Positions 3-64,000 of a stretch of DNA of 64,000 bases are shown here, one piece after another. Numbering within the stretch: the stretch's first letter is position 1; each line of letters starts with the position of its first letter. This stretch comes from an uncultured Flavobacteriaceae bacterium (lineage in GTDB: Bacteria > Bacteroidota > Bacteroidia > B-17B0 > Aurantibacillaceae), in NCBI GenBank assembly GCA_964387075.1, contig CAYLVB010000012.1, positions 81,210-145,209 on the forward strand, written 5' to 3'. The notes under the pieces were generated by a model that did no database searches, was not told the DNA's origin, and saw only the letters and a list, made by a program, of their open reading frames with translations. The position numbers and the translations under genes were made by a program.

Positions 3-581
3 TGGTGGAACAAAAAGATCGAGGAACTCAGTAAAGGCATGCAGCAGAAGGTTCAGTTCATCGTTACGGTGATACACAAACCCAAATTACTGATCCTGGA
101 TGAGCCTTTCAGTGGCTTCGATCCCATCAACGCGCAATTGATACGCAATGAGATCCTGGAGTTAAGGAAGAATGGTACCACGGTGATCTTCTCCACCCAC
201 AACATGGGCTCGGTGGAAGAACTTTGCGATCACATCGCGCTCATCAATAAATCAGAAAAGATACTGGACGGTTCTGTGAAGGAGATCCGCAAGGCTTACC
301 GCTCAAATACCTACGATATCAATTTCAAAGGAAACATCATGGGTTTTACCAATGCCATGTGGACCGGAGGCGAGCTCCTTGAAAAGCACAGCGATGGCGA
401 TGTGCATGAGGTTCGTGTGAAACTGGCGGCTGCCATTAAGCCGAACGATCTTTTGAAGGCCGTGATGCCTTTCGCCGAGATCAATTCGCTGCGCGAGGTG
501 ATACCGAGCATGAACGACATCTTCATTCAAAAAGTACAGGAGACGCAAGTAGTAGGAACGCAAAGCAATTATACCGAGTAA
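3..581 (+). CDS. ABC transporter ATP-binding protein (5'-truncated by window edge)
   Basis: Frame is open from the window start (WWNKKIEELSKGMQQK). Signature LSKGMQQK, Walker B LLILDEPFSGFD, H-loop STH, DUF4162-like tail. Confidence 0.93.
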   Translation, partial: WWNKKIEELSKGMQQKVQFIVTVIHKPKLLILDEPFSGFDPINAQLIRNEILELRKNGTTVIFSTHNMGSVEELCDHIALINKSEKILDGSVKEIRKAYRSNTYDINFKGNIMGFTNAMWTGGELLEKHSDGDVHEVRVKLAAAIKPNDLLKAVMPFAEINSLREVIPSMNDIFIQKVQETQVVGTQSNYTE

Positions 582-13000: not shown

Positions 13001-14492
13001 GGCCTTTACTACCCAGACCCTTTGTTACCCTTACCAGGCAACTTTTACAGATAGCTCTAGCGCCAGCGTTTTCTGGAAACGCGATTGGGACCTGGGCACA
13101 GGGCAGGTAGTGAACAACAGTCTGTCGACCGTAGGAACTCTGTTTACGGCGCCGGGCACCTATACAGTGAGCCTTGTGGTGTATACAACCAACGGCTGTG
13201 TTGATTCCCTGAAAAAATCATTCACTTTGTACGGGCCGGTCGCGGATTTTTCTTATGGTCCGAACATTATTTGTAAAGGACAAAGTATCACTTTCAATAT
13301 CAAGGACACTACCGATGTATTTACCTGGCACTGGGATTTTGGCGACGGGCAGGATACAACGGCTGTTTCTCCCATCGCGCATACGTTCGATGTGCATCCT
13401 CCGGGCGGAACTACCAATGTAACGCTGATCTACTGGAGTGATGATTCTTCCTGTGTGCAAACCAAGATCTACCCCGTAAATATTTTCCAGGTGATCTCTG
13501 ATTTTGATCGTAATAATGATACTTTGCTTTCGGATACGGCGCATTGCCTGGGATTGGTAGATCAGTTCACCAATATCTCAACCGGCGCGGACACTTATGG
13601 CTGGACCTTTGGCGACGGAGCTTCAAGCACGCTTTTGAACCCGCAGCACCAGTATGCAGCTCCCGGAACCTATTCGGTGCAGCTGCATATACAAAATAAC
13701 GCAACGGGTTGCGTGGATACCTTGGTCAAGGAAATGGTGATCTTCCCGCCGGTCACCGGGAGCGCGGTTGGTGATAGTGTTTGTTTGAATCAAAGCGGGG
13801 CTTTAAGCGCGGGCGGAGGAACATCTTATACCTGGACGCCCGCTACGGGATTGAGTTGCACCAATTGCCAGAATCCTTTAGCCGCTCCTTTGGTAACTAC
13901 AACCTATTCGGTCATCGTAACGGATGCAAACGGCTGTAAAGATACGGTATCAACCATTTTCTTTGTGCAGCAACCGCCTAATACAGTGAATTGGGATACC
14001 AGCATCGTGGTAGGAGAGACCGCTACATTGCCCGGCGACGCGGGCCCCGGCTATTCTTATACCTGGACGCCCACAACAGATCTTAGTTGTACCACTTGTC
14101 CAACCCCGGTTTCATCTTCAACCGTTGATATAACTTACGTACAAACTATTGCCGACGCGATGGGATGCTTTACCGGTGTTTCGACCTTCACGGTGATCAT
14201 TCTGCCGCTTTCTTCGGTGGATGTGCCCAGTGCCTTTACGCCGAATGGAGACGGAACAAATGATATTGTTTATGTAGCGGGATGGGGTATCAAACGTTTA
14301 TTGTATTTCCGTATCTACAATCGTTGGGGGGAGTTGATCTTTGAAAGTAACGACCTGAGCATTGGTTGGGACGGAACTTACCGCGGCGTTCCGCAAAACA
14401 CAGAGACCTACGTGTACGAGGTGAGCGTAGAACCTTATATTGAAAGCGGCAAGCCGGTCTTCAAAAAGGGTAACATCAAACTGCTGCGTTAA
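10074..14492 (+). CDS. Large multi-PKD surface protein with gliding-motility-associated (T9SS type B) C-terminal domain
   Basis: Many WxFGDG PKD repeats; C-terminal VPSAFTPNGDGTND...IYNRWGE...WDGTY...GNIKLLR. Confidence 0.93.
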   Translation: MPTRVFRLLFSLLILWSFGMHSQIVATPTTGCAPLVGVNFTGIPGSTGVLWNFGDATTSTLLNPVHTFAAAGSYTVTYSATVSGSPVNQSLVINVFGKPSPAFTAVPPLSGCIPLPVTFNDNSTGGGGSAITNWQWAFGDGGVNATNSPNQTYTYSVGGQFSVSVKITDANGCDSTLTLTNIINVSQKPTIVLSTNPNPVSACNPPLNVTYNTNGTVSNSTTGPSLTYSWSFGNGNTSTVANPPQQTYNSYGTFPMVLYVTDNNGCKDSVKRTVNIANPFASFLTNDTVCISATFTSTSTGATSYVWSYGDGGSSSGVTGTHVYANPGTYSVTLDVYNGVCHDDTTIVVYVEKPVADFSVTPTYMCDLEKVITLTNLSTPTSGVTYSWNFMENYTQYQFTPTTSTQSNPTFTITNLDTNRYTIYTFDWKDSIKLTITTPRGCVSTKTINFVDSIYLPSARFMPDKYQGCVPLTITFSDSSRSREAIVYYEYNFDDGSPPLIGVQNPVHTYTATGVYWPWLIIHNANGCIDTSYRIKIEVGKPPSPSFSLTPTNICIGDSVYITNTTAATDSVDSWHYYGDGSYYISGCYNSANADWPFTHATGAQNITMEACFRGCCASTTITGAVTVKGPLGTFSTAMDCDSSRVYTFTGTISDATTWDWDFGDGNSALGSTQPTISHSYTATGDYWVYLTSYNPGTGCNPYKDSAFIRVRDIKADFVFDTVMCTKSFHNFDGSPSVDEYVFGSNGYTWLWDDNTHPDLTGDSVITHSFSGSGIHVVTLIVHDVNRCSDTVRKTIKAFSVAAGFTASQTSICTIDTVNFTNTSTADTTIVGYSWSFGDGTTSTATNPSHIYNITNGSVNTVTVTLVTTSALGCSDSVKIVINISRPSASFNTLTSMNICSGDSVHFNFPGSHPTMNWNFGDGNTVSGVTQPWHPYTSAGNYTVSLFVIDAQGCTDFKSIAPVNVQNKPSVFITSPAFTTQTLCYPYQATFTDSSSASVFWKRDWDLGTGQVVNNSLSTVGTLFTAPGTYTVSLVVYTTNGCVDSLKKSFTLYGPVADFSYGPNIICKGQSITFNIKDTTDVFTWHWDFGDGQDTTAVSPIAHTFDVHPPGGTTNVTLIYWSDDSSCVQTKIYPVNIFQVISDFDRNNDTLLSDTAHCLGLVDQFTNISTGADTYGWTFGDGASSTLLNPQHQYAAPGTYSVQLHIQNNATGCVDTLVKEMVIFPPVTGSAVGDSVCLNQSGALSAGGGTSYTWTPATGLSCTNCQNPLAAPLVTTTYSVIVTDANGCKDTVSTIFFVQQPPNTVNWDTSIVVGETATLPGDAGPGYSYTWTPTTDLSCTTCPTPVSSSTVDITYVQTIADAMGCFTGVSTFTVIILPLSSVDVPSAFTPNGDGTNDIVYVAGWGIKRLLYFRIYNRWGELIFESNDLSIGWDGTYRGVPQNTETYVYEVSVEPYIESGKPVFKKGNIKLLR

Positions 14493-32966: not shown

Positions 32967-33121
32967 TCAGGGAATCACAACCTGAATTTGATAGCAAGAA
33001 ATCTAAGGCGTTATCAGATGATGACAAAACACGCAGACTTCAAATTGTCTATTGGATAGTTGGAATTATTGGAACTTTAGGCACTTTAACCTTTGGAGTA
33101 ATTGCCCTTTTTAAAAAATAA
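32960..33121 (+). pseudogene. 3' remnant of a foreign gene with a C-terminal TM helix
   Basis: Startless frame YLLRESQPEFDSKKSKALSDDDKTRRLQIVYWIVGIIGTLGTLTFGVIALFKK* begins at the CheB breakpoint. Confidence 0.5.
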
Positions 33122-33123
33122 TT

Positions 33124-35016
33124 CTATTCTCTTTTTTTAATTAGTATAGCAATTCTTAGTAAAACGCTAAGAACAAGAACTGCCTTGTCGGGTGAATAAT
33201 CTTCTAAATCTAAATGTGCATGCGCTACCACGTTCCGGATATTTGGACCAGCTTTGCTATTCATGATGAAATCTACGAATATTAGATGATCCAGTAGCAT
33301 TGTCTTATCCTCTTCTTCTAGGTTTTTTTCTTCTTCAATAAGCTTAAAAATATCAGACATCAATATTCCAAAGGTCTTTTCTTCCACAGTACCGTCTTCC
33401 TTTATTCTTGAGGTGAGAATTTTGAATTTTTCCTCACAAATTAGTCGAAGTATATATTCAACTTTAGGGGTTAAGGAATCTATTGAGCATACATAGCTTG
33501 GATTGCCCCCATTATTGGCTAAGGAAAGATTCAGCTGACTGAAAAACAGTTTAATTGGTTCGTCTAGCAATTTCGCAACAACTACCTTCCTAGTAAAGCC
33601 ATTATAGACCTTCACTATTTCTTCTCCGTACCAAGTATTGCTCGATAACCACTTTATAATAAATTCAGCAGTTATTTTATTTGCGCGCACTGCCTCATAA
33701 AAATAAGAAGCATGTATTTGCAAGTCAATTTGGGTGAGTAGTTCATACATCTGATAAAATGATACTCTGTCATCTTCAGATTGCGCTCCTATAGTTATAT
33801 TGTTATTCCCGTGTTTATCATAAATATCTACTGAAAGCATCCTTGAGAGGCTGAAATTTGTATCTTCGCTTTCCATTTTTTTAATCATAGAGAAAGTTGG
33901 AATCATTTCTCCGTATGCAATTCGTTTTAAAAGAAACTCAGGTTCTTTAGTTGAAACTTCCTCGTCTCTTTGTTTTTCTTTTGCCTTTGTGAACTCATCA
34001 ACTGCAGGAAAGGACATTTTACCAAAATTCATTTCCTTTTTTGCTTTCGTAAAAGCCTCATGTATTTCGTTAACTTTTTGCTCATCCCCTATCAATTTAT
34101 AATACTTTATGGCTGAAATATAAAATTTAGGGGCCACCATACCTTTCCTCTTTTCAGCTTCGGCAACATAACAATCAGCACATAATCTATACCAAGGGTC
34201 AGTTTCTTCTTTTAACTTTGCGGCTAAATGCACCGCGTTTTTAGCAATATCAATTGCATTATGGTTGTCAGTATTTTTGAATTCAACTGCAATCTCCCAG
34301 TTTTTTTTCAAAATTGGCTTTAGGCCATATTCAGAAAATTCCGAGAAATGTTCGTGTAATAACCGAGTATAACTAAAAAGGAGATGCCTAGTGCCTTCTT
34401 TGTTTTTATCCCAACTGGACAGTTTGTCATAAATAAAATTTCTAACTTGCTTATAAAACGGCACCATTTCCTTTACATTTCTTCTTTGATGAGCTAAAAG
34501 AAAAACATCTTTTGTTAGGGAAGTTAAATAGGTAACGTAATGCTTCTTTTTATTTATTTTGTCATCAATTGCCTTAGCGTAGTATGCATCCATTAAAGCA
34601 AACATAGATTTCAAAACCTCTGCAACAAACTGATTATCTCTTTTTTTCTTAGACTGAATTAAAAATATCCCGTATTTATATCGGATATAATCATTCTTGG
34701 ATTCATCGAATCTCTTTAAAATATATTCAAAATCAGCATCTGCATATTTTGTTATGTCCGGCCATTGAACTAAAATTTCCACTGCACCATTTGGTAATTT
34801 TCTCCCCTCAGTTGAAGCCGGCTCTATTCCTCTCTCCATTGATACACTAAAGTGTAATTGTTCATATTCCAAGGTTAGCAAACGATGTTCTTCATCAGTT
34901 CCTTCTTTTTTGCACTCGCCCCCCAATCTATTCAATTCATCTCTTAGGTTTGAATAATCACCGTAGTCTAGTTTTGAGGAATCTAATTTTGAAGTGTATG
35001 TGTTAAGAAGTTTCAA
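33124..35016 (-). CDS. DUF4209-like protein with C-terminal HEPN-type RxxxxH motif
   Basis: Helical 630 aa; C-terminal L.PKVEYILR...GPNIRNVVAHAHL. Confidence 0.7.
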   Translation of the reverse strand: MKLLNTYTSKLDSSKLDYGDYSNLRDELNRLGGECKKEGTDEEHRLLTLEYEQLHFSVSMERGIEPASTEGRKLPNGAVEILVQWPDITKYADADFEYILKRFDESKNDYIRYKYGIFLIQSKKKRDNQFVAEVLKSMFALMDAYYAKAIDDKINKKKHYVTYLTSLTKDVFLLAHQRRNVKEMVPFYKQVRNFIYDKLSSWDKNKEGTRHLLFSYTRLLHEHFSEFSEYGLKPILKKNWEIAVEFKNTDNHNAIDIAKNAVHLAAKLKEETDPWYRLCADCYVAEAEKRKGMVAPKFYISAIKYYKLIGDEQKVNEIHEAFTKAKKEMNFGKMSFPAVDEFTKAKEKQRDEEVSTKEPEFLLKRIAYGEMIPTFSMIKKMESEDTNFSLSRMLSVDIYDKHGNNNITIGAQSEDDRVSFYQMYELLTQIDLQIHASYFYEAVRANKITAEFIIKWLSSNTWYGEEIVKVYNGFTRKVVVAKLLDEPIKLFFSQLNLSLANNGGNPSYVCSIDSLTPKVEYILRLICEEKFKILTSRIKEDGTVEEKTFGILMSDIFKLIEEEKNLEEEDKTMLLDHLIFVDFIMNSKAGPNIRNVVAHAHLDLEDYSPDKAVLVLSVLLRIAILIKKRE

Positions 35017-36077
35017 GTCGTTGTAAATTTAATTTTGCTCCGAAGCCTTTCTCTCCTCTGAATTATATACCAAGCTTCTTCTAGTCCGCTAAATATTTCT
35101 TTCTCACTTGTAGCATGAATATAAAGAAAGCCATCAAGATTTTTAACAGACCTTTCCATATCCTGGGTTGGAGTAATATTAGAGATGCAAATTTCAATCA
35201 GGCCTTCTTCTCTTTTTCTCTCTGCCTTACCCCACTTAATGAACGTATCTTCTAAAGCCATTTGGCCTAATATCTGGTTCCAATGATACATTGAGCGTAC
35301 CCTTATTTCGGCAGGACCATAATTCATTCCCTCCTTCTTTTTAAGAAAAATGCTTTTAGCCTCAGTAGGTTTTTCAAAATACTGCATCAGTTCTTTATTT
35401 TCACAGATTGCGTTGAGAGCTTTTTGAGCGTACGCAATAGGCTCAAACTCTCGCTTCAGAGATTCTAAATTATCATATATATAGCCTTTCATTAAATGGA
35501 AGAAGGTACATCCAAGTAGAAAATTGACTAGCATGATTGAGCAAACCCATATCTGCCAACGGGATAGTTGAACATCCTTTGTTAGAAGGAGTAAAACGAA
35601 CACAACAAAGGATAAAACAAAGTATTCTCTTAACCGGGAATGGTTTTCACTAATGAATTTATCAGTTTCCTCCTTATCTAACTCCATAAGTGCCTCCGAA
35701 AAAACAATAATATGCTTCTTTGGATTTAAGTATCCATAGCTCTCCTTTGCTACTCCAATAAAACTTAATATCTCCACAAATGTTTTTCGTTTGTTCCATG
35801 GCCAAGCTAGCAATCGAATAAGCAGGTCGCCAATAATTACTTCCCCACAGAGCCTCCACAAAAGGTACCATACTACAAATATTCCTAAAAAAAAATAAAT
35901 TAACTTGGTCGTAGATAAAGAGGGAGGTAGTGGATCCTTTATGAGACTTTGAATGGAGAAACTATATCCAAATAATAAACAGGTAAAAAAGAAGGTGATT
36001 AAAAGCTTAAAGAGAAGTATTATAAGTTTCTCAAGTTTGGCAGGCTCTTCAGTAAGTAGTTTGGCTAAATTATACAT
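35013..36077 (-). CDS. Hypothetical membrane protein (about 4 TM helices plus soluble C-terminal domain)
   Basis: Two pairs of hydrophobic segments; its stop overlaps the TTG start of the downstream gene. ATG 36077 or TTG 36092. Confidence 0.75.
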   Translation of the reverse strand: MYNLAKLLTEEPAKLEKLIILLFKLLITFFFTCLLFGYSFSIQSLIKDPLPPSLSTTKLIYFFLGIFVVWYLLWRLCGEVIIGDLLIRLLAWPWNKRKTFVEILSFIGVAKESYGYLNPKKHIIVFSEALMELDKEETDKFISENHSRLREYFVLSFVVFVLLLLTKDVQLSRWQIWVCSIMLVNFLLGCTFFHLMKGYIYDNLESLKREFEPIAYAQKALNAICENKELMQYFEKPTEAKSIFLKKKEGMNYGPAEIRVRSMYHWNQILGQMALEDTFIKWGKAERKREEGLIEICISNITPTQDMERSVKNLDGFLYIHATSEKEIFSGLEEAWYIIQRRERLRSKIKFTTT

Positions 36078-58746: not shown

Positions 58747-59631
58747 ATGTCTTTACACACAAAATTCAAAGGAACCGGTGTCGCCATTGTTACGCCATTT
58801 GACAGTAACGGCGACATTGACTTTAAAGGATTGACCAGCCTCATCAACCATCTTATCAAGGGCAAGGTAGAATACCTGGTGGTAATGGGTACAACCGGCG
58901 AGAGCGCCACCCTCAATAAGGAAGAAAAGAAGAAGCTGATAGAGCATGTGGTGAAAACGAACAAGAAACGTGTTCCGTTGGTTTTAGGCATTGGCGGGAA
59001 CGATACACGCGATGTAATTGAAACGATCAAGCATACAAACCTGAAAGAGTTCGACGCCATCCTTTCGGTTTCTCCGTATTACAACAAACCTTCGCAGCGC
59101 GGTATTTACGAGCATTACAAAGCCATTGCGAAATCAACTAAAAAACCAATTATCCTGTATAACGTTCCCGGCCGCACATCTTCGAACGTGACCGCGGACA
59201 CCACGTTGAAGCTGGCGCGTAAATTCAGCAATATCATCGCGGTTAAAGAAGCTTCGGGTAACCTCGAGCAATGCATGGCCATCATCGAGAATAAGCCAAA
59301 AGATTTCCTGGTTATCAGCGGCGATGATAACTTAACACTGCCTTTATTGGCTTGCGGTGCCGATGGAGTAATTTCTGTTGTAGCCAACGCTTTCCCCAAA
59401 GATTTCTCAGACATGGTGCGCAGTGGACTGAAAGGTGATTTTGCTACGGCCCGCAAATTGCATTACAAAACGTTTGAGATCACGCAGCAATTGTTTGCCG
59501 ATGGTAACCCCGGAGGTGTAAAGCACGCGCTTCAGTTACTGAAAGTTTGTGGTCCGCACCTGCGTTTGCCATTGGTTGAACCCAATGAAGCCGTGCAAAA
59601 GCGTTTGAAGGAGCTTGTAACTAACTACTGA
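58747..59631 (+). CDS. dapA: 4-hydroxy-tetrahydrodipicolinate synthase
   Basis: GTTGES, PYYNKP, LYNVPGRT, KEASG, SGDD. Confidence 0.97.
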   Translation: MSLHTKFKGTGVAIVTPFDSNGDIDFKGLTSLINHLIKGKVEYLVVMGTTGESATLNKEEKKKLIEHVVKTNKKRVPLVLGIGGNDTRDVIETIKHTNLKEFDAILSVSPYYNKPSQRGIYEHYKAIAKSTKKPIILYNVPGRTSSNVTADTTLKLARKFSNIIAVKEASGNLEQCMAIIENKPKDFLVISGDDNLTLPLLACGADGVISVVANAFPKDFSDMVRSGLKGDFATARKLHYKTFEITQQLFADGNPGGVKHALQLLKVCGPHLRLPLVEPNEAVQKRLKELVTNY

Positions 59632-59688
59632 GGGATTGCTTCGCCAGTGGCCTCGCAATGACGTTAAATCGGTGACCTCGCAATAACG
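59632..59688. repeat. GATTGC/GCAATGAC REP-like palindrome plus a partial second copy
   Basis: GGGATTGCTTCG...CCTCGCAATGACG, then CCTCGCAATAACG. Confidence 0.65.
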
Positions 59689-59696
59689 TTTAAAAG

Positions 59697-60878
59697 ATGC
59701 ATTTAAGTAACCGACAACTTTTCTTACAACACGTGGCTCAAACGAGCCCTGCCCCGGTGGGACTGGAGATCGTTTCTGCGAATGGTGTTTATTTGAAGGA
59801 TGTGAACGGAAAGGAATACATCGATCTTATTTCCGGAATTTCGGTAAGTAACGTGGGGCATTGTCACCCCGAAGTTGTTGCTGCCATTGAAAAGCAAGCC
59901 AAAACCTATATGCACCTGATGGTGTATGGCGAGTACATTCAGAGTCCGCAGGTGGAATTGGCGCAGGCGTTGGTGAAACTATTGCCCAAGAAGCTCAGCA
60001 GTGTTTATTTTGTGAACTCGGGATCGGAAGCTACCGAAGGAGCGATGAAGCTATCGAAGCGCTTTACCGGTAGGAGTGAGATCATTTCCTGCAAGGATTC
60101 CTATCATGGAAGTACACAGGGAGCTTTAAGCATCATCGGTAACGAATTCTTCAAAACGAATTATCGTCCGCTTTTACCGGATACGAAGTATATTGCTTTT
60201 AACAGTGAAAAGGATCTCGAAGAGATTACTTCGAAAACTGCCTGCGTTATTGTAGAGACCATTCAAAGTGAAGCGGGAGTTATTGCTCCGAAGAATGATT
60301 GGTTAAAGAAATTAAGAGAGCGCTGTACAGAAACAGGAACCCTTCTTGTTTTTGATGAAGTGCAGGCGGGTTTCGGGAGGACAGGAACCTTCTTTGCTTT
60401 TGAGCAGTTCAATGTTGTGCCCGATATTTTACTTTTAGGAAAAGGAATGGGAGGGGGGATGCCCATTGGCGCTTTTGTGGCTTCGGCCGAGATCATGCAT
60501 GCATTAACGGATAATCCTGTTTTGGGCCACATGACAACCTTTGGTGGTCACCCGGTTTGTTGCGCGGCTTCTTTGGCTTGTTTGAACTTAATTTCAGGAA
60601 AGAAACTCTACGAGCGTGGGAAAAACATTGCAGCCATCATAAAAAAAGAACTAGTTCACCCTAAAATAAAGGAGATCCGTGCTTCGGGAGCTTTAATTGC
60701 CGTTGATTTTGGCGACGAGAAATACAATATGTCTGTCATCCACAATTGCATTGAGAACGGCGTTATTACCGATTGGTTCCTCTTCAACCCACAAAGTATG
60801 CGTATTGCTCCGCCGTTGACTATTACAGATGAGGAACTAAAGAAGGCTTGTGGGGTTATTTTGGGGGTGATTCAATAA
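59697..60878 (+). CDS. Class III PLP aminotransferase (acetylornithine aminotransferase-like)
   Basis: NSGSEA.EGA.K, YHG.T, FDEVQ.GFGRTG, GKGMGGG, TTFGG.P. Confidence 0.93.
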   Translation: MHLSNRQLFLQHVAQTSPAPVGLEIVSANGVYLKDVNGKEYIDLISGISVSNVGHCHPEVVAAIEKQAKTYMHLMVYGEYIQSPQVELAQALVKLLPKKLSSVYFVNSGSEATEGAMKLSKRFTGRSEIISCKDSYHGSTQGALSIIGNEFFKTNYRPLLPDTKYIAFNSEKDLEEITSKTACVIVETIQSEAGVIAPKNDWLKKLRERCTETGTLLVFDEVQAGFGRTGTFFAFEQFNVVPDILLLGKGMGGGMPIGAFVASAEIMHALTDNPVLGHMTTFGGHPVCCAASLACLNLISGKKLYERGKNIAAIIKKELVHPKIKEIRASGALIAVDFGDEKYNMSVIHNCIENGVITDWFLFNPQSMRIAPPLTITDEELKKACGVILGVIQ

Positions 60879-60967
60879 CGTTTGGCGACTACACGCCGTT
60901 TTTAGCTTGTCCAAGTTATGCATTTAGGCGTTAACACGCAAAAAATGGAGTGTAGTTGCGGTTAGCA
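60873..60967 (-). repeat. attC-like recombination site 1 (95 bp)
   Basis: Plus strand CAATAAC-GTTTG-GCGACTACACGCCGTTTTT...AAAAATGGAGTGTAGTTGC-G-GTTAGCA; arms 16/19 Watson-Crick plus 2 G.T. Confidence 0.8.
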
Positions 60968-61004
60968 CCTGTACGGCCGCACACAGTATTTGTCTAGCCA
61001 AACG

Positions 61005-61841
61005 TCAGACCAATTTAAATGTCTGAAAGAAGGCTTTGATGAATTTTTCGGAACCCAAGTAAAACTTGTCGGCACTATGCAACATCAACATATTTACATT
61101 TGTTGCAAAGGAGCCGTCAACGTCTTTGCGTATAATTTTGTTATAGAACGCTTTATTTCTAATGTCAATGCCGTTTTTGTCTTTGCCTTCATAAAAGACG
61201 CAACAATGTTTATTGTCAATCGGAACAATTATTGTGTGACCTATTTCAAATTGTTGTTGGTACTCATTGTTTCTCAAGTTGAATTCATTGTCAACGATAA
61301 GAACGGGGTTGTCGCTGGTAATAAATTGAGAAGTGTCCGTCAGTCGAAGAATTTTTACGACTTTAAATTCATGAGCCTCTAATAACGCTGGAACTATTTC
61401 CTTAACATGTGCGATTTTATAATCTTCTTTGATTTTGTCTAACTCAAAATGAAACTGTTCGGGAACATTTTTTAGGAACAAATCAAATTGTTTAGGAGTC
61501 CTAGCGTGAAGGGATAAAAAGAACATTAAAAGTTTGCTTCGCTGCAACATGTCAAACTGATTTGCAGTTGGGTCAACGAGTAAATTGTAAATGTCTGTGT
61601 ATTCATTTTCGACATGGTGAGCGTAAAATGTCGTTTCGACAACCATAGAATCATTTCCTCCGTCAATGGTGTAAAAGTCCTCAACGACTGTCGCACTTTT
61701 TAAGGAGATTGGTCTGTTAAGTTCTTTATTTCTCATGTCGGCGGACTGGCCCACGCGCTTGAATTTTCGGAAAATCTTTTTTCCGTCGTCCGAGAAATTT
61801 TTGAGGTAGCACCTAGGAGTCGTATGTTGGTCTTTTGTCAA
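61005..61841 (-). CDS. DUF4238 domain-containing protein (cassette cargo)
   Basis: N-terminal QHTTPRCYLKNF, SL..RTP, FITSDNPV, P...KHC; TTG start. Confidence 0.82.
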   Translation of the reverse strand: MTKDQHTTPRCYLKNFSDDGKKIFRKFKRVGQSADMRNKELNRPISLKSATVVEDFYTIDGGNDSMVVETTFYAHHVENEYTDIYNLLVDPTANQFDMLQRSKLLMFFLSLHARTPKQFDLFLKNVPEQFHFELDKIKEDYKIAHVKEIVPALLEAHEFKVVKILRLTDTSQFITSDNPVLIVDNEFNLRNNEYQQQFEIGHTIIVPIDNKHCCVFYEGKDKNGIDIRNKAFYNKIIRKDVDGSFATNVNMLMLHSADKFYLGSEKFIKAFFQTFKLV

Positions 61842-61881
61842 AGTCTTTTGTCTTAACGGAATGTCTGTCCGGCCATATTGG

Positions 61882-62065
61882 TACTAACGTTTGGCGACTA
61901 ATGGCCGTTGGGCTTTTGGAACACTCAACTTTCTTAACCGACAAAAGGTTATTTAAAGATACCAAACTTTATTAGCCGCCGCAAATTAAATTTCGCGAAG
62001 CGACCTTGTTAATAGCGCGCGGCGATGACCCGATTCCGCCCAATGGCCATTAGTTGCTGTTACCC
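61882..62065 (-). repeat. attC-like recombination site 2 (184 bp)
   Basis: Plus strand TACTAAC-GTTTG-GCGACTAATGGCCGTTGGGC...GCCCAATGGCCATTAGTTGC-T-GTTACCC; arms 18/20 plus 2 G.T. Confidence 0.82.
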
Positions 62066-62110
62066 CTTGTGCGCCACACAAAGGTTGTCATAGTATTCAA
62101 TTTAAAACAT

Positions 62111-62140
62111 TTTGTCATTCACATAAAAGGAGTAAATTTG
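62111..62140 (+). promoter_or_regulatory. Cassette-internal Bacteroidetes promoter
   Basis: TTTG (62111-62114), 18-nt spacer, TAAATTTG (62133-62140), 23 nt before ATG 62164. Confidence 0.55.
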
Positions 62141-62163
62141 ATATAAATAGCCTAACTCGGTTT

Positions 62164-63018
62164 ATGTCGTCATTAGCAGATTCAAGTTCAGTATTGCTGC
62201 CAGGAAAACTTCTGCCTCAGCATCAGACGGCTATTAGTTTGATAGTCGGCAAGCTTGAATCGCCTCAAGTCACTGATTTCATTTGGTTTGACCTTTGTTG
62301 CGGAAAAGGCCAGATACTTAATCAACTAAAAGGGAATATTTCAGTCAAAAATGTATCAAAAATACATTTCAAAGCTTTTGATATTAATAACGACGATATC
62401 AGGGTAAACGAGCAAATTGGAAAGTCAATAGGATTTAAATCATATGATTCAAAGGTTGGAGAAATAAGTGATTTTTCAACTTTGATTCCAGAAACTGAAA
62501 AGAAAGATTTTATTACTTGCATCAATAGTTTTCATGAAATAGATCCGATTCTAATACCAAAGGTTCTTCTGGAAAGTCTTATTCGTTTGACCGCGGATGG
62601 TATTTTGTTTATCTATGATATGGAGGATTTAGTTGATCAGGAGCTTGGAGCCATCACATGGAGTAGATCAGAGGTATTTGAAATAACAAGTGGTTTAATG
62701 AGCGCCATCGATGTTAGCGATTATACACCTGAACCTCAAGGATGGCCGCATTCGAAGACAACAGGATGGAGTGTTCAAATTCATAGAAGAAGTATTTCTA
62801 AAACTCTTGTATTTAATACGGAACAGAAAAATGAAATTTTGGCAAAATTGGAAAAACTTATATTTGAAATACTAGAGCGAAAAAAGAAACTTGCAATAGA
62901 AGCTTTAGAGTCTTTTACGGATAGTAATTCCGACACTAAGTCTGAGGAAAACCTTCAGGTAAAGTTCTTGTACGATTTTTGGGCTATTAACAGAATTTTA
63001 TCAAAGCATAAGAGATGA
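62164..63018 (+). CDS. Class I SAM-dependent methyltransferase-fold protein (cassette cargo)
   Basis: Motif I WFDLCCGKG, AFDIN, DFITCINSFHEI, L..DG.LFIYD; helical C-terminal extension. Confidence 0.8.
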   Translation: MSSLADSSSVLLPGKLLPQHQTAISLIVGKLESPQVTDFIWFDLCCGKGQILNQLKGNISVKNVSKIHFKAFDINNDDIRVNEQIGKSIGFKSYDSKVGEISDFSTLIPETEKKDFITCINSFHEIDPILIPKVLLESLIRLTADGILFIYDMEDLVDQELGAITWSRSEVFEITSGLMSAIDVSDYTPEPQGWPHSKTTGWSVQIHRRSISKTLVFNTEQKNEILAKLEKLIFEILERKKKLAIEALESFTDSNSDTKSEENLQVKFLYDFWAINRILSKHKR

Positions 63019-63833
63019 TGAAAATATTTTTTTCCATACCGCATGAACTAATCGAATTATTCGATCAAGTCAAAACAGAACTTGAAAACAAAGGGTATTT
63101 GGTTGTCAATAATTTCCGAGAAGAAGTATATTCTTCGTTTTCTGGTGAAACTGTTTCTTTTGTAAGTAATCACATTCTCAACGCCGATATAGTAGTAGGT
63201 GTTGACGTGAGAAATCCTTCCGTACTATTTGAATTGGGCGTTGCCTCTGGAAGTTCCAAAAAAATTATTATCATGGAACGCGACGAAAGTGATATCCCTA
63301 GTTTTTTAAAAGATTTTTATTATTTGCGTTGGAAGGATTCTATGTTTTTAGCAGAGCAAATTGACCATTTCATAAGAACGCAAATCAAAAGCACAGTTAA
63401 ATCAATCACTCCTGCTGAATTTCATAACCTGAGAGATTTAATTCGTGCATCCTCAGATTCTATTTCTGCTTTGGATAATGTAAGTCCTGTGGATTTTGAA
63501 TCACTTGTATTCGAATTTTTCAATACTAAAGGCTATGGACCTACTGAACTTCCTAGGAATGGTCTTGATTATGGTTATGATATGGTCTTATCGAATTATA
63601 AAGAATACAATAAAACCTTGGTAGAAATAAAAAAATATCGATCAAATCAAAGAATTTCTATCGCTCCAATTCAGCAACTGTTGGGTGCTGTATCAGCGTA
63701 CAAGGCAGATCATTCTATTTTGATAACGTCCTCTGGTTTTACTTCGTCAGCGATTTCTTTTTCAAACAAAATGGTCAGTCAAAAAGTTGAGCTTTGGGAT
63801 TTTGAAAAATTGAGGCAGGAAGTCTTGACGTAA
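63015..63833 (+). CDS. Fusion of an N-terminal nucleoside 2'-deoxyribosyltransferase (NDT)-like domain and a C-terminal Mrr-type restriction endonuclease domain
   Basis: N-terminal ILNADIVV...NPSVLFELGVA...KKII; C-terminal FESLV...GY...DYGYD...VEIKKY...ITSSGFT..A; ATGA overlap with the upstream gene. Confidence 0.8.
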   Translation: MMKIFFSIPHELIELFDQVKTELENKGYLVVNNFREEVYSSFSGETVSFVSNHILNADIVVGVDVRNPSVLFELGVASGSSKKIIIMERDESDIPSFLKDFYYLRWKDSMFLAEQIDHFIRTQIKSTVKSITPAEFHNLRDLIRASSDSISALDNVSPVDFESLVFEFFNTKGYGPTELPRNGLDYGYDMVLSNYKEYNKTLVEIKKYRSNQRISIAPIQQLLGAVSAYKADHSILITSSGFTSSAISFSNKMVSQKVELWDFEKLRQEVLT

Positions 63834-63853
63834 TTTTTTTCAGTCTGTCGTCC

Positions 63854-63890
63854 TGGCGCATTAGGGGTAACTACCTTATAGCATCAGTTT
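63854..63890 (-). other. Candidate attI-like (primary) recombination site
   Basis: Minus strand GATGCTATAAGGTA-G/TTACCCC: GTT core with no attC hairpin on the outer side. Confidence 0.5.
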
Positions 63891-64000
63891 TTTCCTTCCT
63901 ATCCTGCTGTTTTAGCAAGATAACAGCCAGTATATTGCGCTTTTCGGTATAATCAAAAATAGGCAATTTTTGGCAAATAAAAAAAACGATAAGTTTTTGG

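Follow-up and report, generated by a model that had tools for sequence, protein, structure and literature searches.

A minus-strand cassette array of a probable integron-like system in a Bacteroidota chromosome

The window analyzed here, a stretch of 64,000 nucleotides from an uncultured Flavobacteriaceae bacterium, contains two gene cassettes arranged on the minus strand between an attI-like site and a chromosomal aminotransferase gene. We regard this locus with good confidence as a two-cassette satellite platform of an integron-like system of Bacteroidota, on whose folded sites a recombinase would act in trans. An earlier note on this DNA had proposed a minus-strand integron-like array with a site class specific to Bacteroidota, and the comparative evidence described below backs that proposal. 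In the proposed mechanism, a solo attI analogue with a predicted cassette promoter sits between two chromosomal genes, and cassettes would enter and leave there through the genome's single IntI-related tyrosine recombinase, encoded elsewhere, which would recombine hairpin sites, folded from single strands, at G|TT. The substrate would be the folded bottom strand, which is the plus strand of the window. Two dyad arms of about 15 bp, each with a conserved bottom-strand G.T mismatch, and a 1x5 loop at the crossover would do the work that extrahelical bases and the I2 helix do in classical integrons. Cassette 2 would have entered first and cassette 1 later.

Organization of the Locus

In array direction, the locus begins with the attI-like platform site of about 100 bp (63868..63970, minus strand), which has an internal imperfect palindrome and the core ...TATAAGGTAG|TTA. 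The third junction of the window (63868-63871) is the core of this site and not a third hairpin, and the crossover would fall between 63871 and 63870. A promoter-like box, TAnnTTTG, which resembles a promoter consensus, is located at the 5' end of the site (63954-63961); sigma-70 promoter scans are uninformative for Bacteroidota. Cassette 1 (61888..63870, minus strand; 1983 bp) has ends GTTACCCCT.../...AGGGGTAAC that pair with mismatches at positions 10-11. It carries a 284-aa protein with a SAM-methyltransferase domain (62164..63018, plus strand; Pfam PF13847, E 5.6e-7) and a 272-aa protein with an Mrr-type restriction endonuclease domain (63015..63833, plus strand; Pfam PF04471, E 4.8e-22; PADLOC match mREase_IV, E 4.6e-12), which are likely a defence-related pair. 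Both genes are antisense to the array direction, and a promoter-like motif for the methyltransferase gene, TTTG-N18-TAAATTTG, is present at 62111-62140. Among 301 genomes of the class, only the genome under study was positive for this methyltransferase.

Cassette 1 is followed by site 2, an attC analogue of 178 nt (61885..62062, minus strand; TAAC-A-GC...GC-CAAAC-GTTA), near-identical copies of which (177-178 nt) occur in the C5 array and in L058. Cassette 2 (60879..61887, minus strand; 1009 bp) encodes a 278-aa DUF4238 protein in array direction (61005..61841, minus strand; Pfam PF14022, E 1.6e-22) with a weak PADLOC match to DUF4238-Pers. The GC content is 0.35 in cassette 1 (between cores) and 0.38 in cassette 2, versus 0.45 in the genome. 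The array ends with site 1 (60876..60964, minus strand; 89 nt; TAAC-N1-GC...GC-N5-GTTA), whose GTTA shares bases with the TAA stop codon of a convergent gene, that for a class III aminotransferase (59697..60878, plus strand; Pfam PF00202, E 3.6e-102). This stop codon is the right junction of the array, and the aminotransferase was found in 58 of the 61 genomes searched. The locus has two cassette sites and no recombinase gene nearby, neither upstream of the attI-like site nor elsewhere around the array. An Rfam scan of positions 56-64 kb of the window and of L007 and L009 returned no family matching the sites.

The Recombinase

The earlier note had called for a genome-wide search for a tyrosine recombinase and a check for the IntI-specific insertion; a recombinase was found on another contig, and the insertion is absent from it. 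Its gene (L007:8724-9671) is the only IntI-like recombinase gene of the genome and heads a co-oriented array on contig C3, with the attI core 98 nt after the recombinase stop and a same-strand array behind it. The catalytic set R-K-HxxR-H-Y is intact and the N-terminal domain is of the IntI-type SAM_4. Between the aligned blocks there are 18 residues, versus 60 in VchIntI4 (query 217->236 corresponding to VchIntI4 180->241); the protein aligns to XerA without gaps across the I2 region, and the insertion-less length is kept in six relatives. The best NCBIfam matches are NF040815, "site-specific tyrosine recombinase/integron integrase" (215 bits, under the cut-off of 220), and TIGR02249, where the match falls into two parts (201 bits, cut-off 265). 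Identity with housekeeping XerC or XerD was rejected: the genome has a separate XerD (L001, above cut-off) and an XerC-like protein (L003), and the array recombinase scores far under both cut-offs. We infer that this recombinase is the catalyst, and it likely serves several scattered platforms in the genome, which has six attI-like sites.

Within the host family, 86 of 121 genomes carry this recombinase; in a sample of the phylum, 34 of 301 do. The site pattern occurs in 16/34 recombinase-positive and 22/267 recombinase-negative phylum genomes (hand count; related genomes are included, and the counts are not independent). Recombinase-negative here means no match at E<=1e-70, and 22 such genomes carry sites. 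In G443 (94% complete), five attI-like sites and no such recombinase were found. On the strand of the recombinase and downstream of it, 76 sites were counted in 496 kb, in contrast to one site on the opposite strand and one upstream in 663 kb. That the recombinase gene is itself a cassette was rejected, because sites are lacking upstream of recombinase genes apart from that one.

Solo attI-Like Sites and Gene Turnover

Over 103 bp, the attI-like site of the window (63868-63970) shares 96% identity with the sequence that directly follows the recombinase stop on contig C3. An HMM built from 67 sites next to recombinase genes in other genomes also ranked it first (E 1e-7). The C3 copy has TTTG-N19-TATTTTTG; the window copy has no upstream TTTG at that spacing. 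The attI core is present at 70 of 103 recombinase loci, and in 6 of 80 contigs the assembled sequence breaks off no more than 2 nt from an attI GTT. An attI pattern tally (90/121) was left unused for being noisy, with matches in the reversed control as well, and 19 pattern matches from seven genomes were chosen by eye for closer study. Among 22 solo attI sites, nine have no matching end. The idea that the solo unit arrived in circular form, with G|TT at its left junction, is unsupported: the homology to C3 begins just past the recombinase stop, and there is no GTT.

The window locus could instead be what is left, in a frozen state, of a complete element that lost its own recombinase gene by deletion; we consider this unlikely. 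Three of the five solo sites of the genome look decayed (altered cores or half sites), as a remnant would; the site of the window, however, is nearly identical to the active-looking C3 copy, and recombinase remnants were found upstream of none of the 22 solo regions (about 1.8 kb or more, tblastn E<0.01). The closest relative, G015, has the same TAA|C junction with a different site and other genes, and its attI-like site at the equivalent locus is truncated. The common junction means that the platform is old and can be counted for a remnant, but at one orthologous solo locus four genomes carry four different first cassettes. A gene-less cassette of 404 bp, moreover, occurs four times, three of them identical, with differing neighbours in the C3 and C5 arrays, and the identical form is common to a recombinase array and a recombinase-less array.

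The satellite platform reading fits the turnover of genes at these junctions. The earlier note had named three findings that would speak against an integron-like array, namely gene content that does not vary at the junctions, sites that do not flank variable genes and the lack of a recombinase acting on the sites; instead, the relatives compared differ in their genes precisely at the TAA|C junctions, the sites flank variable genes, unlike REPs, and a matching recombinase is encoded in the genome. No empty allele of the window locus was found among the relatives examined. In 28 of 29 relatives there is no site at the aminotransferase stop, but the other side of the locus is not syntenic there; the gene downstream occurs in 3 of 185 family genomes, and in G002 it does not adjoin the aminotransferase gene. 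The circle junctions predicted earlier (63870/61888 and 61887/60879) did not appear in the contigs of four runs, two of which may derive from the source of this DNA; contigs are a kind of data in which rare forms are dropped. A joint 60946->63868 was rejected as evidence of excision, for it is explained by the first cassette of C3, where the same attI is combined with a similar site of 89 nt.

Cassette Sites and Pairing of Cassette Ends

Both hairpins and both end pairings reported earlier were located again: 62059-62076 pairs with 63854-63871 at 16/18 positions, and 60961-60979 with 61870-61888 at 15/19. The asymmetry of a 1-nt and a 5-nt spacer also holds, both sites reading TAAC-N1-GC...GC-N5-GTTA on the minus strand. 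This (1,5) geometry has six matches in the 4.18-Mb genome, five of them within three arrays, versus 0-2 for each of 13 other spacer geometries; the (5,1) pattern returns the same six on the opposite strand. The (1,5) sites are therefore not due to chance. The spacer geometry of classical attC sites is not found in them.

A better fold of the plus strand, as claimed earlier, was obtained for both linear sites (plus versus minus, -18.4 vs -15.4 and -38.1 vs -37.2 kcal/mol) and for the rebuilt site of cassette 1 (-52.7 vs -47.4 kcal/mol); for the rebuilt site of cassette 2 the minus strand is favoured (-23.9 vs -25.9 kcal/mol). With flanks included, the stability of site 1 is not above that of shuffles (z -1.13). 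Within the first 14-20 stem positions there are five mismatches, four of which are G.T on the plus strand and A.C on the minus strand (hand count), in agreement with the earlier description. Across 76 sites, with a modal length of about 126 nt, the bottom strand is lower in energy in 60. The stem is ungapped through position 18 with one fixed mismatch, and the GC and AT skews are neutral. At stem position 5, 29/76 sites have T.G on the top strand, which is the wrong way for a bottom-strand fold, and the G.T/A.C split over the first ten stem positions (36:43) is not significant. These pair-type counts were made with a stem-selecting finder and do not amount to independent evidence of covariation.

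The terminal complementarity of about 18 bp applies to the cassettes of the window (18-19), and not to the family, in which pairing ends at position 15 and positions 16-22 are at background level. The ends pair in 47 of 68 consecutive segments, versus 4.4% of mismatched pairs, and 21 segments have no matching end. Position 11 of the end pairing is matched in 0/68 segments, an obligatory mismatch, which is mirrored at the equivalent position of the inner stem by A.C in 60/76 sites. Hairpins close at (1,5) in 48 cases, versus four at (5,5) and none at (5,6). A non-circular test, independent of hairpins, was made on 42 recombinase-adjacent attI sites with enough downstream DNA. A complementary end was found at 22 of them, with an A/G mismatch in 21 of the 22, and 20 had no matching end; a (1,5) hairpin follows 16 of the 22 ends, versus one at (5,5) and none at (5,6). 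Judging from these sequence patterns, base-pairing rather than sequence-specific binding is what accounts for the cassette-specific complementarity.

Recombination of double-stranded, Xer-like sites, with the hairpins incidental, would fit the gap-free alignment to XerA and the dyad-symmetric arms of about 15 bp, comparable to Xer and Cre sites; this is very improbable for ends that differ between cassettes yet are complementary within each and lie 70-190 nt apart in the circle, and the mismatch that is obligatory in both arms suggests that the two strands are told apart. It is scarcely credible that the hairpins are REP- or MITE-like repeats, terminators or an assembly artefact: site 1 does score terminator-like on the plus strand behind the aminotransferase gene, and unitigs break at the attI and at site 2, both of them repeats, but each genome has just a few sites, which are clustered and polarized downstream of attI, the end pairing is specific to each cassette, the junction data already contradict REPs, the attI copies share identity stretches of about 40-60 bp with even depth across the locus, and the same cassette anatomy recurs in complete genomes and plasmids.

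Comparison with Known Integron Systems

Sedentary chromosomal integrons consist of IntI, attI and attC cassettes, and the classical attC site has the geometry R''-~5 nt-L''...L'-5/6 nt-R' with extrahelical bases. An integrase co-oriented with its array ("inverted") is reportedly found in the Treponema denticola group. The present system resembles sedentary integrons in its tyrosine recombinase beside a primary site (at the C3 locus; the window has the attI without the gene), the G|TT crossover, a TAAC...GTT hairpin ending each cassette, shift-by-one complementarity of the ends, mostly promoterless same-strand genes, the modal site length, and a cargo of defence-type and unknown genes along with gene-less cassettes. 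It differs from them in that the recombinase is without the IntI-specific insertion, the attI follows the recombinase stop codon, a 1x5 loop is found instead of 5/5-6 spacers, arms of about 15 bp with a fixed mismatch replace 7-bp boxes with extrahelical bases, and several solo attI platforms exist per genome.

Cassettes far from an integrase gene, with handling in trans proposed, are known as CALIN, SALIN and attG insertions, according to the portions consulted of two studies (10.1101/2022.02.28.482270; 10.1101/2022.09.11.507474). The window array is likewise remote from the recombinase gene; unlike these, it retains an entire attI copy, promoter-like box included, and its sites are non-canonical. 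Such a copy can, in principle, serve as a permanent platform for insertion instead of marking a single event. The I2 insertion was reported to be essential for integron function (PMC8138268), and its absence from this recombinase counts against the proposed mechanism. We infer that the recombinase falls in the "integron-like" subgroup of Smyshlyaev et al. (2021; PMC8138268), a paper which, in the sections consulted, assigns no cassette arrays or sites to insertion-less members. The Riemerella 10K island integrase was set aside as a different, tRNA-targeting enzyme with a length of 1356 bp, as far as the excerpt of the source describes it (PMC6764341). The consulted sections of four further papers (PMC13616975; PMC8618304; 10.1101/2022.02.06.479319; 10.1101/2024.07.02.601686) do not describe the system, and our literature search found no description of it.

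Implications for tet(X) and Other Cargo

A broader proposal, to which we give somewhat better than even chances, is that an I2-independent second class of integrons exists across Bacteroidota, with self-spreading attI-promoter modules and a part in the first step of tet(X) mobilization. An Xer-like recombinase would act on folded single strands at twin-mismatch dyad sites, and the attI-promoter module would spread alone behind terminators, giving one enzyme a genome-wide network of platforms. The system would have mobilized tet(X) and other resistance genes of Flavobacteriales before ISCR2 carried them to Acinetobacter and E. coli. Hardly any integrons are otherwise known from Bacteroidota, with one complete integron named in the phylum proper in a survey of genome sets on the scale of 21,000, as given in the part consulted (10.1101/2022.02.28.482270). 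If folded single strands were recombined without an I2 helix, this would be a second way for an Xer-type enzyme to come to shuffle cassettes, and it would become possible to test how integron chemistry arose. With solo attI platforms, the capture of cassettes would be spread over the chromosome.

For the "xerD/tpnF" genes next to tet(X), the sections consulted of previous reports mention that the genes are neighbours or hold ISCR2 responsible, do not settle what the recombinase does, and describe no sites or cassette ends (PMC7473080; PMC11194056; PMC7722449). TpnF shares 43% identity with the G000 recombinase, and it is encoded upstream of tet(X3)/(X5) with the same orientation. The site anatomy offers a concrete answer here, and it also provides a means of surveying for resistance and defence cassettes that standard tools may overlook: tet(X2) forms a complete cassette of the same type, the same anatomy surrounds lnu(H) and arr, and an attI-like site lies in front of estT-tet(X4).

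Cassettes and Sites of the Window Array

The feature at the end of the window is real and probably works like an integron, yet it departs from integrons in two defining respects, the IntI insertion and the geometry of attC. It occupies a low-GC block (GC 0.35-0.38 vs. 0.45 for the genome) behind a class III aminotransferase gene, and its array runs on the minus strand. The two hairpins and the pairing of both sets of cassette ends (16/18 and 15/19) described in the earlier note were borne out. The sites, 89 and 178 nt in length, have the minus-strand layout TAAC-N1-GC...GC-N5-GTTA. This TAAC-N1/N5-GTTA geometry had six matches in the 4.18-Mb genome, five of them within three arrays, against 0-2 for 13 other geometries, and an Rfam search returned no family matching the sites. 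The background for comparison is the anatomy of classical attC sites, integrons with an inverted integrase and the promoter consensus of Bacteroidota; the spacer lengths, (1,5) here, differ from those of classical attC. Cassette 2 (60879-61887) carries a DUF4238 gene oriented with the array, and cassette 1 (61888-63870) a pair of methyltransferase-domain and Mrr-domain genes against it, with their own promoter-like motif. The methyltransferase was found in one of 301 class genomes, namely its own.

Elsewhere in the window, a second low-GC island (GC 0.34-0.36) lies at 33001-36000, and a 22-nt direct repeat, probably REP-like, is present in two copies at 59630-59695 between the DHDPS and aminotransferase genes and recurs elsewhere in the runs.

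Anatomy and Proposed Fold of the Sites

The earlier note had put the terminal complementarity at about 18 bp. Pairing does extend beyond 7 bp, but family-wide it reaches position 15 and then falls to background. Of 68 consecutive segments, 47 have ends that match at five or six of the positions 5-10; the unpaired ones include some where the site finder passed over a site. Among mismatched pairs the figure is 4.4%, and outer arms that belong to the same linear site pair at background level. Position 11 matched in none of the 68. When the first cassette end was defined solely by complementarity to the attI (primary insertion site) flank, independently of any hairpin, such an end was found in 22 of 42 loci. 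Of these 22, 21 show an A/G mismatch at position 11, and the hairpin behind the end is of the (1,5) type in 16, (5,5) in one and (5,6) in none.

The inner stem has A.C at position 14 in 60/76 sites, and 4 nt past TAAC its left strand can be read as another GTTA-like box. We infer that the folded site is a 1x5 loop flanked by two dyad arms of ~15 bp, each with a bottom-strand G.T mismatch at an equal distance from the core. Folding energy is lower on the bottom strand (in the window, the plus strand) in 60/76 sites. Against this two-arm, bottom-strand reading, 29/76 sites have T.G at stem position 5 of the top strand, the split over the first 10 stem positions is 36:43, and for the rebuilt cassette-2 site the minus strand gives the better fold.

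The Recombinase and Its Distribution

The genome encodes six tyrosine recombinases, one of which, on contig C3, has a same-strand array of window-type sites behind its gene. The insertion specific to IntI is missing from it (18 residues vs. 60 in VchIntI4), and its alignment to XerA runs straight through. The catalytic set of the C3 recombinase is intact, its N-terminal domain is of the IntI type (PF13495), and neither of its top NCBIfam matches, NF040815 and the integron integrase model, reached cut-off. Passages of PMC8138268 describe a subgroup of integron-like recombinases with an incompletely conserved insertion and call the insertion essential for integron function. Immediately 5' of the C3 gene lies a RelE-like/HTH-like gene pair, named by eye (L007:7893-8559).

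A search with one genome per species yielded at least 502 relatives among 599 candidates. The best 80, nearly all labelled Bacteroidota, were retrieved and combined with 22 loci from better assemblies or plasmids and the C3 locus itself into a set of 103 loci; one further region missed the gene. In this set, 76 sites lie downstream of the recombinase on its own strand (496 kb), one on the opposite strand and one upstream (663 kb, both strands). The recombinase is present in 86/121 host-family and 34/301 phylum genomes; a strict 126-nt site pattern occurred in 16 of the 34 recombinase-positive vs. 22 of the 267 other phylum genomes, and its reversed control in five genomes, by a hand count in which kin are not independent. 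An IS110 element and a group II intron lie within an array of this type on a Chryseobacterium plasmid (L159:14579-15895, NZ_CP041688.1), and on a second plasmid of that genus (L160) the same recombinase-attI precedes a different first cassette.

Full-text literature searches covering few subscription journals found no description of this cassette system. The IntegronFinder 2.0 paper names one complete integron in Bacteroidetes proper (10.1101/2022.02.28.482270), and the attG/SALIN work reports cassettes inserted away from attI (10.1101/2022.09.11.507474).

attI and Solo Platforms

Window positions 63868-63970 share 96% identity, ending at GTTA, with the 103 bp behind the stop codon of the C3 recombinase. 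Therefore, the third junction of the window is a copy of the primary site and not a hairpin; an unrelated chromosomal gene stops only ~44 bp away from it. The attI core TATAAGnnAGTT occurs ~90-105 nt past the recombinase stop in 70/103 loci, and 6 of 80 contigs stop ≤2 nt from its GTT, a pattern to be expected from first cassettes that vary within a population. A central palindrome (~11-6-11 bp) between direct repeats inside attI-like sites, e.g., L085, L046, L105 and window 63905-63935, is a candidate accessory binding site for the recombinase or a regulator.

An attI HMM trained on 67 recombinase-adjacent sites from other genomes detected six attI-like sites in the window's genome at E ≤ 0.03, of which that of the window scored best and one adjoins the recombinase. 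Another, on contig C5, heads an array of several cassettes without a recombinase, and the remaining three, C1:266633 (-), C11:175314 (-) and C5:308528 (+), are decayed, with altered cores. The decayed cassettes there hold a 567-aa ATPase-like gene, a 314-aa secreted protein and small ORFs. In both intact satellite arrays, the terminal GTTA shares bases with the TAA stop codon of a chromosomal gene running convergently (window 60876-60878; L009:7894 on C5). We consider it quite likely that the window array is a satellite platform served in trans by the C3 recombinase.

A 404-bp gene-less cassette (GCTT/AAGC core), possibly a selfish one, has two copies in the C3 array (L007:12344-12790 and 14026-14429) and two in the recombinase-less C5 array (L009; C5:72097 and 70985, minus strand). 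Three copies are identical and one is 447 bp; the neighbors differ each time and the boundaries are exact at the core. Its body measures ~80 nt; its site is very long and GC-rich, with 1/1 spacers.

A sample of 22 solo sites comprised 19 attI-like matches chosen by eye from seven related genomes and three from the window's genome. No recombinase remnant was seen at any of them, and a complementary first-cassette end was present at 13/22 vs. 6/448 in the control; many begin directly behind an intrinsic terminator, and one site is empty. In genome G014, a solo attI directly ahead of a chromosomal gene appears empty (L217, C24:50391), and two of its three solo sites follow a degenerate ~21-bp tandem repeat. 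At one orthologous locus of another genus, 4 of 30 genomes have an HMM-supported attI behind the terminator, with four different first cassettes and three attI alleles, and two more have a divergent or decayed attI by eye; in others the terminator leads directly to a chromosomal gene. At the window locus, the nearest relative (aminotransferase identity 84%) keeps the TTCAA-TAA|C junction; its site differs, its two genes are unrelated, and its attI, of another type, is truncated. In the other 28 relatives no site is present there.

Proposed Mechanism

IntI is established to recombine a double-stranded attI with a folded bottom-strand site, one strand being exchanged and replication resolving the product. 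The single-strand substrate and extra domain of IntI are treated in 10.1101/2022.02.28.482270. Most likely, the C3 recombinase likewise binds attI in double-stranded form and the cassette site as a folded bottom strand; it would then exchange single strands at G|TT, and replication would resolve the product. What speaks most for a folded substrate is that the ends, although each cassette has its own sequences, complement each other and lie 70-190 nt apart in the circle. Judging from the order in the array, cassette 2 would be the older, having arrived first and then been displaced from attI by cassette 1. No recombination product or circle junction was found in the contigs of four runs, and a look-up for RNA data sets containing this DNA listed none.

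Resistance Genes

Outside the window, the C3 recombinase is 43% identical to the TpnF/'XerD' adjoining tet(X3) and tet(X5) (23 Acinetobacter plasmid records). The xerD-tet(X) adjacency was noted and its role left open in passages of PMC7473080 and PMC11194056, and the tet(X) context was credited to ISCR2 in those of PMC7722449. Next to TpnF, tet(X3) (L158:4885-6340) starts past a GTT ~175 nt behind the recombinase stop, with the left half of a site after the gene. In a survey of six records, tet(X2) on an Empedobacter plasmid (L182:12000-13330, NZ_CP043636.1) makes up a complete cassette: its ends pair, position 11 is mismatched and the site is full. Sites lie behind both arr and lnu(H), and none was seen behind estT in L184 or L185. 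On an E. coli plasmid, estT-tet(X4) (L183:330-2560) begins directly past an attI-like stretch and extends to the cassette-end TAA, at which ISVsa3-associated DNA starts.
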